Virus record (IMG/VR): IMGVR_UViG_2565956716_000003
Length of the DNA: 9,787 bases
Strand: one strand, 5' to 3'
Origin: a virus
Lineage: Duplodnaviria; Heunggongvirae; Uroviricota; Caudoviricetes
The translations under genes were made by a program, and so were the position numbers. The stretch's first letter is position 1, and every line of letters begins with the position of its first letter. The notes beneath the pieces are model-generated. The model worked only from the letters and a program-made list of their open reading frames with translations, had not been told where the DNA came from and made no database searches. Below are positions 1,985 to 9,787 of the stretch, piece after piece.

Positions 1985-2794
1985 TTATTCCTCTGAATTA
2001 TCGATTACACTGTATTCCCCGGTTAATACAGAGGAATCTGCAGGATCGATTGTCAGTGGTTCCTTTTCATCCATTGATACTGCACGCTGGATCTCAATTG
2101 ATACGGGCAGATATTTGAACAGGCGACGAATAGCCGTTTTCTTTGCCATTTCTTCCCAGTGAGTTACCCACGGCCCGTTATTACCAGCTTTACTCAGGCT
2201 GCGCACCAGCTCAATCTGTTTGCGCGTCATAACTTCAAACTGAGTACCTCCGTCTTTCAGCCTTGCGACAGCATAGACGTGGGTAACCGGGGCATCTTCG
2301 TTTTCTCCCGGGCGGTGTATTAACTTTTTATCAAGGCCAAATTCGAAGCTAAACTCGTCACCTTCACGGACAACACGGGCTGACAGGCTGGCGATTTGAC
2401 CAGAACGGCGAGCCAGATCAATCATGCCGCGATAGCCAATGATTAGCTGAACGTTCTTTTTACCGCTCTTTTCGTTTTTATTACCAAAAGGCAGTAAATA
2501 TGCATGACCGAGGGCGCTACCTGGCTCAAGTCCGAGCTGTGAACACTGTACGATCGCACTGACAAAACTCATAGTGTCACAGTTTCCTAACGCCGGAACT
2601 TTACGAATTTCTGTGGTGGCGATACGGATCATACGTTCAGCCGTCATATGGCGTGGAAGAGCTGCTGCCAGTTGCTCTTTCATTGATGGCTGGTTAATAA
2701 AACTAATCACGTCGCTATTTTTAACTGCTGCTGGTGCACGGTTTCCCTGAGTTTTTTGCAGATCGGCTTTTGCGATTGGTGGTTGCTTAGTCAT
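1985..2794 (-). CDS. recT: RecT single-strand annealing recombinase (269 aa)
   Basis: ORF track gives 1985..2851; start placed at ATG 2794-2792 ([16 protein letters not shown]...), giving the 269-aa length recalled for RecT. AAGGA SD lies just upstream on the minus strand. Start overlaps the recE stop (2789-2787) by 8 nt, the classic recE-recT coupling. Confidence 0.93.
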
Positions 2795-4760
2795 TTGCAT
2801 ATTCCTTAGCCCAGCGGGGCAGTGATAATGTCTTAATAGCTGGCCATTCATCGGTATTCAGGCAGTCAGACAGGGTTCGCAGATTGCGGTGATATTCCTG
2901 TTGACCTGCCAGTTTTGCTTCTTCGCCCATCATGAAAATTTCAACCGGATAACGTCCGCATTCAATAGTTGTGCTGGCAACCAGAAAAACGAAAGTTGGC
3001 TGCACTCCAAACTGTGCTTCATAACCGTCACTGTAGAATGCATCCTGAACGTGATAGCGGTAGTCGTAATAAGCGGTTTTGAATCGTTGAATATCCGCCG
3101 TAGTTTTCACGTCCATGATCCAGTGAAATTCAGGGATAATTTTGTCCGGACGGCACCGACACAAAATTCCTGTTTCAGGATCTTCCCAGTAAATTGATGA
3201 TTCAGCGTGTCCGGCGCTTTCAACAAGCCATTGCCCCAGCGGCAAAGCCATAACGCTTTGATACATGAGTTCAATTTTCCGGCCTTCTTCCGCAGTGATA
3301 ACTGTTTTTCCTGTGCTTGCGCATTCCATCAGAAACGCTTTCTCTTCTTCTTTTCCGGCGTTTGTACGGCGGTTAAATTCAGGTGCTACGATAAAGCGGT
3401 TACTGAATTCTTCCGGTTCAAGTACCCGGCAGTGGAAAGCGGTTCCTAAATCGAGCGTTTTTGTCTTTGTGGTGTCCACGGGGGCATTTTTACGCCACAA
3501 ATATAGTGCCGGAGTATCAGCAATGTCATCGAGCTGAGACTTACTGACACCGGGACCCGCGTGGTAATTCTCATTCGAAATTCCGTAATAAATACCTGGC
3601 TCTATGTCTTCTACGATTACGGGATCTGCGACTTCGCCAGTTTCATCACTGCAATCGCGATGCGGATCGCTGCCAGCATTCTCATTATGCGGATGTTCAG
3701 CGCCTTCCATTTCCTCCGGATCATTTTCCTTAGCTTCAACCTGACTCTCTTCATCGAATGTTTCCTGGTATGTTGCGTCGCCCATCACCGCACCACAGTC
3801 AGGGCAGTTATCCCCGCCAGTCTGGCCGCAGGCATTGCAGGCTATTTCCGGTTCCTGTTGCACTACTGGCTCAGGTTGATTCATATCCGGGCTGGTTTTT
3901 TCCGTTTCTGGCTGGTTCTGGTACACACAATCGCGAGTCTGGATCCCCTTTACCCATTTCGGATCGTTCGGGTCGCTAATTCCGTCAACAAATTCACCAC
4001 GTGATGCAGCAAGCAATTTATCGGCATCGACAGGATCTTTTGATGGAATGTTTTTCCGGGCTTCATGGAGTTCTGCCCGCAGTTCCTGATATTTCGCATC
4101 AACAGAATTTACCTGTGACTGAGCATCCAGCGGCTGCGTGTCCTGATGATGTTCAGTTGCGTCCGGTTCCATTGTTTCAGCCTCTCCCTGTTCAACTGCC
4201 GTTGTTCCAGATGGTTGCGGTTTTTCTTCATCATCCTGTTTTCCTTCTTCTGTTACTCGCTGCGGCATCGGGGCAGAGGAGCGACCGCAGGCAATATCCA
4301 CGATTTCCGGATCAGGGTTGGCATGATCGGTTTCAGTCAGTACTTTGTTCAGATATTCAGTGACGTGCGCGGGGATGACCTCGATCCCAATTGGTGCTTC
4401 TTTTACGGACGCAACCACGATGGCGCGGGAATAATCCAGCCCGCCAGGCATGGTGATGAATTTGTCGCGGAAAACAGAAAAGGGCGGTTTATTTTCAGCG
4501 ATAATTTCCTCAATGCGTTTAGCGTGTGCCGGATGAAGGTTATAGATGTCCAGATCCATTGAACGGGCCAGTACGCCAGTGGCTACGTCGCGCGCCAGTG
4601 ACGTCAGATCGTGTACGAAACCTTCGCCGCGATCGGTGAGGTTTCCGCCGCCAGCATTAGCACCGGAAGCCGTGCGAGTGATGTGTGAAACACGATTACC
4701 CTTCATCCACTCTTTTGTCAGCAGTCCTCGATCGGTATAGTCAGCGTTCAGGTATAGCAT
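2787..4760 (-). CDS. recE: Exonuclease VIII RecE, 5'-truncated: C-terminal 657 codons, nuclease domain complete
   Basis: 657-aa ORF from ATG 4760-4758 to TAA 2789-2787, with an in-frame TGA only 4 codons upstream (4772-4770). Reference RecE is recalled as 866 aa, so about 209 N-terminal codons are absent. Recalled active-site residues D748/D759/K761 map with a 209 offset onto D539/D550/K552 of this ORF (codons 3146-3144, 3113-3111, 3107-3105), which I verified are GAC/GAC/AAA on the minus strand. No SD before the ATG at 4760, so expression is uncertain. Confidence 0.85.
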
Positions 4761-5194
4761 CAGTGTTAATCACTGGCTCAAGTGGTAACGATGGTCTGGA
4801 GGGTGTCAGCTACATACCATACAAAGATATTGTTGGTGTATGGACTGTATGTCACGGGCATACAGGAAAAGACATCATGCTCGGTAAAACGTATACCAAA
4901 GCAGAATGCAAGGCACTCTTGAATAAAGACCTTGCCACTGTCGCCAGACAAATTAACCCGTACATCAAAGTCGATATACCGGAAACAACGCGCGGCGCTC
5001 TTTACTCATTCGTTTACAACGTGGGTGCTGGCAATTTCAGAACATCGACGCTTCTTCGCAAAATAAACCAGGGCGATATCAAAGGCGCATGTGATCAGCT
5101 ACGTCGCTGGACATATGCTGGCGGTAAGCAATGGAAAGGTCTCATGACTCGTCGTGAGATTGAGCGTGAAATCTGTTTGTGGGGTCAGCAATGA
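4754..5194 (+). pseudogene. P21/RrrD-type phage lysozyme (endolysin) lacking the N-terminal signal-anchor-release segment
   Basis: Translation from about 4754 reads [40 protein letters not shown]...[13 protein letters not shown], matching the recalled RrrD/R21 lysozyme from about residue 20 onward. The catalytic E-x8-D-x5-T triad is present. No ATG precedes it: the ORF track starts at GTG 4685 inside antisense recE sequence, and the first in-frame ATG (4877) is downstream of the triad. Stop TGA 5192-5194 overlaps the Rz start (ATGA). Confidence 0.8.
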
Positions 5195-7388: not shown

Positions 7389-8177
7389 ATGAGCGAGAAA
7401 TTAAAGATAGTCTATCGCCCATTACAAGAATTGTCACCGTATGCGCACAACGCCAGGACGCACAGTACTGAGCAGGTGGCACAACTGGTAGAAAGTATTA
7501 AGCAATTCGGCTGGACTAATCCGATGCTGATTGACGAAAAGGGCGAAATTATTGCGGGTCACGGTCGTGTTATGGCGGCTGAAATGCTCAAAATGGATTC
7601 TGTTCCGGTCATTGTTCTGTCTGGCCTGACGGATGAGCAGAAAAAGGCGTACCGCTTGGCAGATAATCGCCTACCGATGAATGCTGGCTGGGATGAAGAT
7701 CTGTTGCGGATGGAGCTGTCGGTCCTAATCAATGCTGATTTTGATGTCTCCCTGACAGGCTTCGGCCCGACAGAAATTGATGAACTGTTGACGGATGTTT
7801 TGCCCGGTACAGGAAATAAGGAGGAGCCGTATACGACGAAAATTGATACGCCTGTTTATGAGCCGTCGGGCGGTAAACCGGATATCAGTGAACTGTACGA
7901 CGATACGAAAACTCAGGAGCTGATCAGCCGGATACGTTCGGCGTCCCTTGATCCTGATATTGAGAAATTCCTCCTGTGTGCGGCAGAACGTCACACGGTG
8001 TTTAATTTCAGCAGAATTGCGGACTATTACGCTCATGCCCCCGCTGAAATTCAGTGCCTTTTCGAGGAGTCGGCGCTGGTGATCATTGATTATCAGCAGG
8101 CTATTGAAAATGGATTTGTCCGAATGACGCAGCGCATGGTGGAGATCATGCATGGCGGGGAGGAGGAATATGCGTGA
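7389..8177 (+). CDS. ynaK: ParB-like nuclease-domain protein (ParB/Srx fold), 262 aa
   Basis: ATG at 7389, TGA at 8175-8177. The N-terminal region has a ParB/sulfiredoxin-family signature (EIIAGHGRVMAAEML, compare the ParB GERRxRAA box). The N-terminus matches my recollection of Rac YnaK. Confidence 0.75.
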   Translation: MSEKLKIVYRPLQELSPYAHNARTHSTEQVAQLVESIKQFGWTNPMLIDEKGEIIAGHGRVMAAEMLKMDSVPVIVLSGLTDEQKKAYRLADNRLPMNAGWDEDLLRMELSVLINADFDVSLTGFGPTEIDELLTDVLPGTGNKEEPYTTKIDTPVYEPSGGKPDISELYDDTKTQELISRIRSASLDPDIEKFLLCAAERHTVFNFSRIADYYAHAPAEIQCLFEESALVIIDYQQAIENGFVRMTQRMVEIMHGGEEEYA

Positions 8178-8183
8178 TGATTT

Positions 8184-9206
8184 TTGCGCCTTTATTCTGA
8201 CTCACGGGCGACCGGAAAAAGTTCTGACTTACCGGACGTTGCGTCGTGCTGGCTAGCCGCGCTGACAGACAATACGCAGGGGGCAGCAGGTCTTGAGTTA
8301 TACGAGGTGTATAACAACGGATATCCAACAGCGTATGGAAATATCATTCACCTGAAAGGGATGTCAGCCGTTGGCGAAGGTGAGTTACTCATCGGCTGGA
8401 GTGGTACAAGCGGTGCTCATGCTCCGGCATTTATTCGTTCACGACGGGATACGACCGACGCAAACTGGTCGCCGTGGGCGCAGCTTTACACCTCGGCTCA
8501 TCCTCCTGCAGAGTTTTATCCAGTCGGTGCACCAATCCCGTGGCCATCAGATACCGTTCCGTCAGGTTATGCCCTGATGCAGGGGCAGACTTTTGACAAA
8601 TCTGCATACCCGAAACTTGCAGCAGCTTATCCGTCAGGCGTGATCCCTGATATGCGTGGCTGGACGATTAAGGGCAAGCCCGCCAGTGGTCGTGCCGTAT
8701 TGTCTCAGGAACAGGACGGCATTAAATCGCACACCCACAGCGCCAGCGCATCCAGTACGGATTTGGGGACGAAAACCACATCGTCGTTTGATTACGGCAC
8801 TAAATCCACGAATAACACCGGTGCGCATACCCATAGTTTAAGTGGCAGCACGAATGCAGCTGGTAATCACAGCCATAGAGATGGCCGTCGATTTAACCCC
8901 AGTGTTTTTAAAGATACTTATCAATATGGTTATACAAGTTCCGGTACAAATACTTGGGGTGTACAAGGTTCAGTAGGTATGTCTACGGGGTGGTTAGCTA
9001 ATACCAGTACAGATGGTAATCATAGCCACTCACTGTCCGGCACAGCAGCATCTGCAGGTACACACGCACATACTGTCGGTATTGGTGCTCATACGCACTC
9101 CGTTGCGATTGGCTCACATGGACACACCATCACCGTTAACGCTGCTGGTAACGCGGAAAACACCGTCAAAAACATCGCATTTAACTATATTGTGAGGCTT
9201 GCATAA
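8184..9206 (+). pseudogene. stfR: Side tail fibre StfR, C-terminal fragment (340 codons) with HxH repeat domain
   Basis: The ORF begins at a TTG directly after ynaK with no credible start. Translation ends ...[22 protein letters not shown] and carries seven G-x-H-x-H motifs, matching recalled lambdoid side tail fibre C-termini; the full protein is over 1000 aa. Stop TAA 9204-9206 overlaps the tfaR ATG (TAATG). Confidence 0.8.
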
Positions 9207-9787
9207 TGGCATTCAGAATGAGTGAACAAGCACGGACCATAAAAATTTATAATCTGCTGGCCGGAACTAATGAATTTATTGGTGAAGGTGACGCATATAT
9301 TCCGCCTCATACAGGTCTGCCAGCAAACAGTACCGATATTGCACCACCAGATATTCCTGCTGGCTTTGTGGCTGTTTTCAACAGTGATGAGGCATCGTGG
9401 CATCTCGTTGAAGACCATCGGGGTAAAACGGTTTATGACGTAGCGTCAGGGGACGCGTTATTTATTTCTGAACTCGGTCCGTTACCGGAAAATGTTACCT
9501 GGTTATCGCCGGAAGGGGAGTTTCAGAAGTGGAACGGCACAGCCTGGGTGAAGGATACGGAAGCAGAAAAACTGTTCCGGATCCGGGAGGCGGAAGAAAC
9601 AAAAAACAGCCTGATGCAGGTAGCCAGTGAGCATATTGCGCCGCTTCAGGATGCTGCAGATCTGAAAATCGCAACGGAGGAAGAAACCTCGTTGCTGGAA
9701 GCCTGGAAAAAGTATCGGGTGCTGCTAAACCGTGTGGACACTTCCGTAGCACCAGATATCGAGTGGCCAGCTGCACCTATAGGGTAA
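9206..9787 (+). CDS. tfaR: Tail fibre assembly protein (chaperone), 193 aa
   Basis: ATG at 9206 overlapping the stf stop; TAA at 9785-9787. Translation [53 protein letters not shown]... matches recalled TfaR-family proteins; the stf-tfa pairing is conserved. Confidence 0.9.

Follow-up and report, generated by a model that had tools for sequence, protein, structure and literature searches.

The window analysed here is a stretch of 9,787 nucleotides from a virus of the class Caudoviricetes (IMG/VR record IMGVR_UViG_2565956716_000003), and it carries an open reading frame (ORF) of 28 codons (8170–8256, + strand) between ynaK and a truncated tail fibre gene, stf. Judging from its intact relatives, this ORF is the dead remnant of a glycosyltransferase gene, not a gene in its own right, and it marks one side of a large deletion in a Rac-type prophage. 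The scar alone would be ordinary, a case of routine prophage decay. Its stf endpoint, however, corresponds to the last two bases (TA) of a conserved 9-mer, GGTCGGGTA (codons G-R-V), that sits just before the C-terminal receptor-binding module of stf, and by our count at least 37 independent deletion types, distributed over two hot spots, end on these same two bases. We consider that a Rac-type deletion scar, together with a recurrent stf endpoint and a proposed conservative exchange at that endpoint, is the best explanation overall, with a probability of roughly 0.85. Such a nucleotide-precise, reused deletion endpoint is apparently new to the literature, and none of the papers in the library searched had the hot-spot sequences in a relevant context. 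The original prediction, made from the window alone, had mentioned neither this endpoint nor the fact that the stop codon of the 28-codon ORF is made by the junction.

The deletion junction in the window

The ORF begins with an ATG at 8170–8172, five bases 5' of the ynaK stop codon, with which it overlaps (ATGCGTGA), and is closed by an in-frame TAG at 8254–8256, both as originally read. A Shine-Dalgarno (SD) sequence had been placed at 8158–8166; it is indeed present, as GGAGGAGG, although it starts one base later (8159–8166, + strand). This SD is native to the glycosyltransferase gene, as it also precedes the intact copy in E. coli strain 400660 (L002/L214; numbers prefixed with L denote the loci fetched), while the copy in L219 has an extra GGA repeat. 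The parent gene carries the same SD and the same overlap with ynaK, so the ORF is no chance overlap, and in intact relatives its translation is predicted to be coupled to that of ynaK.

The ORF had been taken for the start of the gene natively following ynaK, severed by a deletion of the packaging, head and tail genes and the 5' two-thirds of stf, and the intact relatives bear this out. Their gene order is trkG, ynaK, a gene of 310 codons, a small ORF, terS, terL, portal, head, tail, J, lom, stf and tfa, the 310-codon gene following ynaK both in strain 400660 and in phage vB_EcoS-683R6 (L003); compared with them, the window has lost terS, terL and portal, the genes for head and tail, and roughly 70% of stf from its 5' end. 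A search with the peptide, the check proposed at the outset, recovered the full-length parent, with 27/28 identity to residues 1–28 (WP_001204033.1 and URC09400.1) and an E/D difference as the only change. The same 27/28 identity was found by tblastn against phage records in ten E. coli and Salmonella phages, the match in each case being the beginning of a gene that overlaps a ParB-like gene at the latter's 3' end, and remoter matches were to Vibrio and Lactobacillus phage genes annotated as beta-glucosyl-HMC-alpha-glucosyltransferase. In Lactobacillus phage phi jlb1 the annotated glucosyltransferase gene also adjoins a ParB gene.

The parent protein (L002, 6177–7109) matches the Pfam family TAGT (PF20691) over residues 8–222 with 121.6 bits (cut-off 27.5; E = 5.5e-35) and PHROG 842 ('beta-glucosyl-HMC-alpha-glucosyltransferase') with E = 1.4e-103; no NCBIfam match and, by sequence search, no relative of solved structure were found for it. 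Its RefSeq name is 'GREB1-related protein', and GREB1 and the phage TET/JBP-associated glycosyltransferases have been reported as relatives (PMC7968844). The first reading had ventured, as a weak guess, a family-2 glycosyltransferase; the kind of enzyme agrees, although no match to PF00535 came up at E ≤ 0.01. By alignment, then, the ORF is residues 1–28 of a 310-aa TAGT/GREB1-family glycosyltransferase. It spans just the first ~20 positions of the TAGT domain and ends well before the acidic motif LDDDY of the parent (~residues 101–105, with DDD near residue 102), so the remnant could not be an active member of the family.

Alignment with both parents places the breakpoint at a dinucleotide that they have in common, the TA at 8254–8255. 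The parent glycosyltransferase gene reads ...CGTGCTGGC TA TACCGGG..., intact stf reads ...AAAGGTCGGG TA GCCGCGCTGACAG... and the window reads ...CGTGCTGGC TA GCCGCGCTGACAG..., the joint forming an 8-bp palindrome, GGCTAGCC, at 8251–8258. The parental codons GGC TAT ACC have become GGC TA|G CC, in which the G contributed by stf completes a TAG, so that all 28 codons are parental and the stop arose by accident when the two sequences were joined. A second frame, open from 8181 up to the stf stop at 9204–9206, had been described as an stf fragment with no proper start. It does lack a start, but only the part from 8254/8256 onward derives from stf; between 8181 and 8253 this frame is the glycosyltransferase gene read out of frame.

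In the intact Rac prophage found at the same chromosomal locus (L214), codon 29 of the glycosyltransferase gene and the equivalent point of stfR are ~24 kb apart, with terS, terL, portal, head, tail, tape measure, J and lom in between. A single ~24-kb deletion fused glycosyltransferase codon 28 to ~nt 2120 (~70%) of the ~3-kb stf. The native SD and ATG have outlasted it, tfa is intact, and the stf fragment is left without a start codon.

The Rac affiliation is evident from the order of the ORFs in the window (intR...recT, recE...lysis, trkG, ynaK...stf, tfa), and in the genomes with the identical junction the prophage adjoins uspF and ompN. There are three such genomes, MSHS 472, OHT76-1 and 18AR0366, among 5426 complete genomes. 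A second junction of the window, at ~4755, joins the 5' part of recE (ORF 2787–4760, − strand) to lysozyme (ORF 4685–5194, + strand) and occurs in 18AR0366 only, the genome that the window sequence matches, whereas MSHS 472 and OHT76-1 retain ydaU...essD. Since only 18AR0366 has both, the glycosyltransferase::stf deletion is the older of the two. These genomes also bear on whether the 28-codon ORF might be a genuine small gene, or the junction an artefact of assembly, which we find scarcely credible. A strong SD at good spacing and the translational coupling to ynaK are what a real gene would show, but both SD and ATG are parental along with all 28 codons, the stop is a product of the junction, and the ORF is confined to 3 of the 5426 genomes. 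An artefact is contradicted by its presence in three independent finished assemblies (Canada, USA, and a clinical isolate) in which the surrounding deletions differ.

A recurrent deletion endpoint in stf

In a first search, the stf half of the query started at one and the same position under nohA, terminase large subunit and tape measure annotations, and in the fetched loci, all from finished genomes, stf was joined at one nucleotide to four upstream genes that differ from each other, K-12 Qin nohA (nohA::stfQ) being one of them. This first hot spot (HS1) consists of GGTCGGGTA followed by [A/G]CCGCGCTGACAG. The 20 bases to the right of the junction were then scanned against viral, metagenome and species-representative collections, giving 185 occurrences. 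Intact stf (...CTTCAAAAGGTCGGGTA[A/G]CCGC...) accounts for 149 of these loci, and 35 are junctions, every one at NN-TA-[A/G]CCGC, with 15 types of partner; three further types came from other searches (L218, L219 and L268, the last in lambda A), for a total of at least 18. On the lambda map, the partners fall in Nu1 (697, 719), A (955), B (3911), E (6321, 6988), Z (8064), L (13979), I (15277) and the lom-stf spacer (19588), and others are a second portal type, the prohead protease, the tail-tube region, the tape measure and gpJ, the set including K-12 Qin nohA, terL, portal, capsid and lom. All partners examined lie on the stf strand, which makes these events deletions. Two of them affect Rac prophages at the same locus as that of the window: in L218 (NZ_AP027877) a different deletion runs from glycosyltransferase codon ~159 to the same stf TA, and in L219 (NZ_CM129872) gpJ has been joined to it after an earlier glycosyltransferase::J deletion.

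A control 20-mer located 284 nt deeper in stf was followed in the 294 loci with enough upstream sequence, and the whole stretch yielded one deletion junction (L286, lambda A::stf, with 7 nt of microhomology) against 35 loci at the TA. Where these 284 nt show other discontinuities, an alternative stf allele adjoins, and its upstream sequence is the same every time. Nor did any deletion end in the 70 nt upstream of the TA in the HS1 loci. A natural stf allele lacking the TA (GGCTGACC or GGGTGACC), which reads GGTCGGCTGACC or GGTTGGGTGACC at the hot-spot position, was intact in 22/22 loci (including L187), where ~3 junctions would be expected at the rate seen in viral contigs. Among complete E. 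coli genomes, 1134 carry the HS1 region and 684 are intact across the TA; the non-intact genomes that we sampled mostly match only from TA+1 to TA+4 onward, many of them being K-12 laboratory strains with the nohA junction.

A breakpoint analysis of another stf allele family gave four partners at ...GGTCGGGTA|CCTTCTGCCCGT, that is, at a second copy of the 9-mer followed by CCTTCTGCCCGT (HS2, e.g., L232 2547–2555). The left sequence of HS1 and HS2 is identical while their right sequences are unrelated. In a dedicated scan of HS2 we found 120 loci, 97 of them intact and 23 with junctions to 19 partner types (lambda A, Nu1, gpJ, lom and two positions in Rac ynaK among them), all located at the terminal TA of the 9-mer and one carrying CA. 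In complete genomes 1387 of the 1450 HS2 carriers are intact, and some of the rest have terL::stf junctions starting at the TA. The fetched loci, 2.7 Mb in total, contain 168 copies of the 9-mer versus ~20 expected, nearly always at the HS1 or HS2 position; neither hybrids of the two hot spots nor genes with both were found in these loci.

Not every late-gene deletion uses these sites. Those of K-12 DLP12 (aaaD'::tfaD') and both of K-12 Rac were considered as hot-spot events and turned out to be ordinary joints at other places. A resemblance of HS1 to lambda cosN was also considered. The cosN reverse complement CGCGAGGTCGCCGCCC|CGTAACCTG (L433/L222) has AGGTCG and GTAACC in common with HS1 AAAAGGTCGGGTAACCGCG, but these are the only two shared 6-mers and their spacing differs, so the likeness is probably due to chance.

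The point of exchange and its products

The undeleted sequence of the partner was recovered for 34 types. TA is present at the crossover in 28 of them, against a background frequency of 0.042 (binomial p = 2.6e-33), and one of these 28 (L362) is polymorphic, with TG or TA. At every junction the base at −1 comes from the partner and the base at +1 from stf, which confines the exchange to the TA itself; a 4-bp (gyrase-type) or a 6–8-bp (tyrosine-recombinase) overlap would have given −1 and +1 from one parent, and this was not seen. The partners have a roughly symmetric consensus, C-4, G-3, G-2, n, TA, n, C+2, S+3, G+4 (~CGGnTAnCSG), with p between 1e-4 and 2e-3 per position versus TA sites of the same phages, which resembles CGGGTA and is present on both the kept and the lost side of the partner.

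As for reciprocal products, left-hand scans found only two junctions that keep GGTCGGGTA. One of them (L206) is a small rightward deletion, with the HS1 left side joined to a TA inside tfa. In the other (L419, junction at 73) the 9-mer is joined to AGTGCCGTTATAG..., and this right partner and the left partner of L331 (junction 4168) together make up a single site, CTGGGCGCTG TA AGTGCCGTT, that is intact in six other loci in the orientation opposite to stf. Both are contigs of metagenome 3300029469 and map reversed to parent positions 3552 (L331) and 3551 (L419). They are the two reciprocal junctions of an inversion in which HS2 recombined with an inverted TA site among the head genes, and not a base was gained or lost, although this is one case only.

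A shared central dinucleotide with the exchange confined to it, and in this one case reciprocal products, are what a serine-recombinase type of reaction would leave behind. The 9-mer would act as the crossover site of a conservative, serine-recombinase-like recombination with a 2-bp overlap, pairing with weakly similar TA sites (consensus ~CGGnTAnCSG); a partner site in direct orientation would lead to deletion of the morphogenesis genes and an inverted one to inversion of the intervening segment. We put a conservative exchange of this kind at somewhat under an even chance, most of it falling to an enzyme other than the invertase Pin and a small part to Pin. More specifically, and more tentatively, we propose that GGTCGGGTA may be the crossover site of an uncharacterised TA-overlap system at the edge of the receptor-binding module in lambdoid stf genes, with an enzyme from the host, a prophage or a mobile element, whose normal role would be module exchange and whose side reaction at quasi-sites would precisely delete the morphogenesis genes.

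Several observations weigh against such a system. There are 6 partners of the 34 without TA, which have CA (four), TG or CT; their products carry the partner's CA in L268 and L328 and the hot-spot TA in L218, L319, L408 and L076, although either parent's dinucleotide is what one would predict of a 2-bp heteroduplex resolved by replication. The consensus of the partners is weak and was derived after the fact, and HS1 and HS2 have only the left half of the hot spot (GGTCGGG) in common, an unusual situation for a crossover site bound by a dimer. Bases −1 and +1 also tend to be complementary. At HS1, where stf has A/G at +1, the partner has mostly T at −1 (6/13, with G in 1/13), and at HS2, where stf has C, mostly G (9/15, with T in 0/15), so that the joints tend to 4-bp palindromes (TTAA, GTAC, and CTAG in the window); none of the simple models that we used predicts this complementarity (T versus A, G versus C). 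One inversion stands against at least 27 mapped deletions, the reciprocity coming from a single pair of contigs of one metagenome. Finally, no recombinase was found for the exchange, the only recombinase gene nearby being pin, the known site of which differs; only about half of the loci have it 3' of tfa, and by junction type there is no clear enrichment.

Alternative mechanisms

Pin belongs to the Din family of invertases, and it might use GGTCGGGTA and the partner sites as quasi-sites. This is possible but finds no support in the sequence of the site, and we regard it as improbable. The related Cin is known to act at quasi-sites that it selects according to the central dinucleotide. Din enzymes exchange over a 2-bp overlap within tail-fibre genes, at the variable C-terminal boundary, as read in the Mu G segment, and pin lies 1.6 kb downstream in 12/18 of the HS1 junction loci and also in the inversion-bearing L331, where it is 99.5% identical to PinQ. 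Moreover, PinQ, PinR and PinE are active in K-12, where they act on TTGGTTTGGGAGAAGG repeats to invert the e14 P segment (PMC12529663). The hot spot, however, matches the gix/hix consensus at 3–5/26 positions, and both the e14 sites (TTCTCCCAAACCAA[CG]GTTT) and Mu gix (TTATCCAAAACCTCGGTTTACAGGAA), which we read directly, are unlike GGTCGGGTA. A Din/Pin crossover site at the junction was rejected on these grounds, since the 26-bp site with its 12-bp inverted halves (...AAACC NN GGTTT...) is not matched and there is no inverted partner; between stf and pin no inverted copy of the junction sequence was found (L006, L007, L001, L004). In addition, Din enzymes normally invert and do not delete, and pin is absent from the prophage of the window and from about half of the intact loci. 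Its frequency is 49% in intact versus 67% in junction loci for HS1 and 22% versus 67% for HS2, small numbers from non-independent loci, and the association by junction type is split about evenly.

A second alternative needs no dedicated recombinase. The stf endpoint could be a fragile site of RecA-independent illegitimate recombination (template switching or microhomology-mediated end joining), where a fork or nascent strand would halt at GGTCGGG|TA and re-anneal at another TA. We think this unlikely on the whole, but it has to be taken seriously, since nearly all the events are deletions, ordinary microhomology deletions are present in the same prophages, and the junctions have microhomologies ranging from 0 to 8 nt (TAACCGCG in L144, GTCGGnTA in L005, 0–1 nt in the exceptions). 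What it does not account for is the precision: 37 partner types coincide within 2 nt, at two unrelated right-hand sequences, whereas the neighboring 284 nt contain one junction, which is unique. Resection would shorten a DNA end that is not protected, so that its last nucleotide would not be preserved; structure prediction gave neither a hairpin nor any other fold at the site beyond shuffled controls (z = -0.4 to +0.4), the consensus extends to the lost side of the partner (C+2, G+4), and a precise reciprocal inversion would not result from slippage or from end joining.

The same precision speaks against random endpoints from which selection would keep those preserving a functional C-terminal Stf module and Tfa, an explanation that we consider very improbable. 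It would agree with the position of the site, immediately 5' of the receptor-binding module, with the intact tfa and with the enrichment of partner endpoints near the start of the late operon. But selection at the protein level cannot fix a nucleotide, endpoints further upstream would keep the module equally well and the 70 nt upstream contain none, and the stf fragment has no start codon. Furthermore, the 13 HS1 types that lie inside partner ORFs use all three frames, 7 running into an in-frame stop, 3 fusing to stf and 3 entering the third frame, which, counted from the ORF ends and compared informally, is not far from an even chance split.

Three other possibilities were discarded. The stf'-tfa segment is not a mobile cassette with a defined right end, as the DNA 3' of tfa is mosaic and has no common boundary. 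Adjacent deletion and excision mediated by an insertion sequence (IS) is contradicted by the lack of an IS end at any of the 58 junction loci, IS1 and IS3 ends being found only downstream of tfa. Restriction and religation would require a common recognition sequence, and the partners share none beyond TA. A conservative exchange at the TA of the 9-mer remains our preferred reading of the recurrent endpoint, at the tentative level given above.

Neighboring genes of the window

Upstream of the remnant, ynaK (7389–8177, + strand, stop TGA at 8175–8177 overlapping the start of the next gene) is full-length, with 262 aa as in phage vB_EcoS-683R6, and encodes a ParB/Srx-like protein with Pfam ParB_N and a match to PHROG 620 (E = 2.1e-88). 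K-12 YnaK, of 87 aa, is a truncated form left by a deletion, and as a consequence the Prokaryotic Genome Annotation Pipeline (PGAP) tags full-length copies of ynaK as 'incomplete, missing C-terminus'. K-12 ydaY (L432 1622–1981; cf. L213 11804–12253 and L214 23349–23708) is a tail-region gene, located 5' of the tape measure in intact Rac-like phages, and not the native follower of ynaK. Some annotation is thereby corrected: the remnant belongs to a TAGT gene, ynaK is full-length here, and K-12 ydaY is a different gene. In the intact relatives, the ParB-like and TAGT genes are paired, with overlapping stop and start, just 5' of terS (L002 5390–7109; L003 5217–6933), and this pair may be a conserved module for DNA modification or linked to packaging.

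Downstream of the joint, the retained part of stf (8256–9206, + strand), recognized by alignment to intact Stf, is the C-terminal ~30%, 316 codons without a start codon of their own. It corresponds to residues 708–1009 of the intact 1008-aa Stf (L004), contains a tail-collar domain (Pfam Collar, PF07484) and fibre repeats (Phage_fiber), and is called a pseudogene by PGAP in the identical genomes. It is followed by the tail fibre assembly gene tfa (9206–9787, + strand; 193 aa; Pfam Caudo_TAP, E = 3.6e-43), which is intact in the window and annotated as intact in L001 and L220.

Comparison with known systems

The usual picture of cryptic prophages is one of decay through random deletions combined with selection, and a hot spot used to the nucleotide contrasts with it. 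Should a dedicated activity exist, it would explain why the stf C-terminus and tfa modules so frequently survive in defective prophages, and it would provide a defined mechanism for both the shuffling of tail-fibre modules and prophage domestication. Were it the uncharacterised TA-overlap system proposed here, prophages such as K-12 Qin would have become cryptic by a route that is programmed in the sequence and taken repeatedly.

Ordinary decay at microhomologies, represented by DLP12 aaaD'::tfaD', the Rac ynaK'::ydaY region and L286, likewise removes late genes by internal deletion, the gene fragments that remain being joined at a short stretch of identity. The difference is that the endpoints there are unique, whereas the two hot spots have been reused by 18 and 19 partner types and the shared sequence is nearly always TA.

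The parent of the remnant is a clear member of the TAGT/GREB1-related glycosyltransferases, of which the window keeps residues 1–28 only. In the Rac-like phages examined, the neighbor of the gene is ParB-like, and no adjacent TET/JBP gene was seen.

Among systems that cut and join precisely at TA, the IS630/Tc1-mariner elements target this dinucleotide and the Tn3/gamma-delta resolvases cross over at a central TA/AT. They resemble the hot spots in having TA at the point of exchange and weakly symmetric flanks, but they differ in that no transposase, terminal repeat, target duplication or res-type accessory site is found at the hot spots or junctions.

Similar in setting are the Din segments (Mu G with Gin, P1 C with Cin, e14 P with Pin), where the exchange also takes place in tail-fibre genes, at the point where the constant N-terminal part gives way to the C-terminal receptor-binding part, with a 2-bp overlap and in a conservative and reciprocal manner. 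The hot spot departs from them in having an unrelated site with only one half (GGTCGGG-TA) conserved, no paired inverted site by a recombinase gene, and an outcome that is overwhelmingly deletion with non-homologous partners.

A close counterpart of the junction in the window is that of the nohA'-'stfQ pseudogene of K-12 Qin. It differs in the partner, the terminase small-subunit gene Nu1/nohA (lambda 719), in the prophage and its chromosomal site and in having kept pinQ downstream. As in the window, the stf C-terminus and tfa have been retained and all the morphogenesis genes lost, and the stf breakpoint is the same to the nucleotide (…GAGTGAATA TA|ACCGCGCTGACAG), which makes this textbook junction one of the hot-spot deletions.

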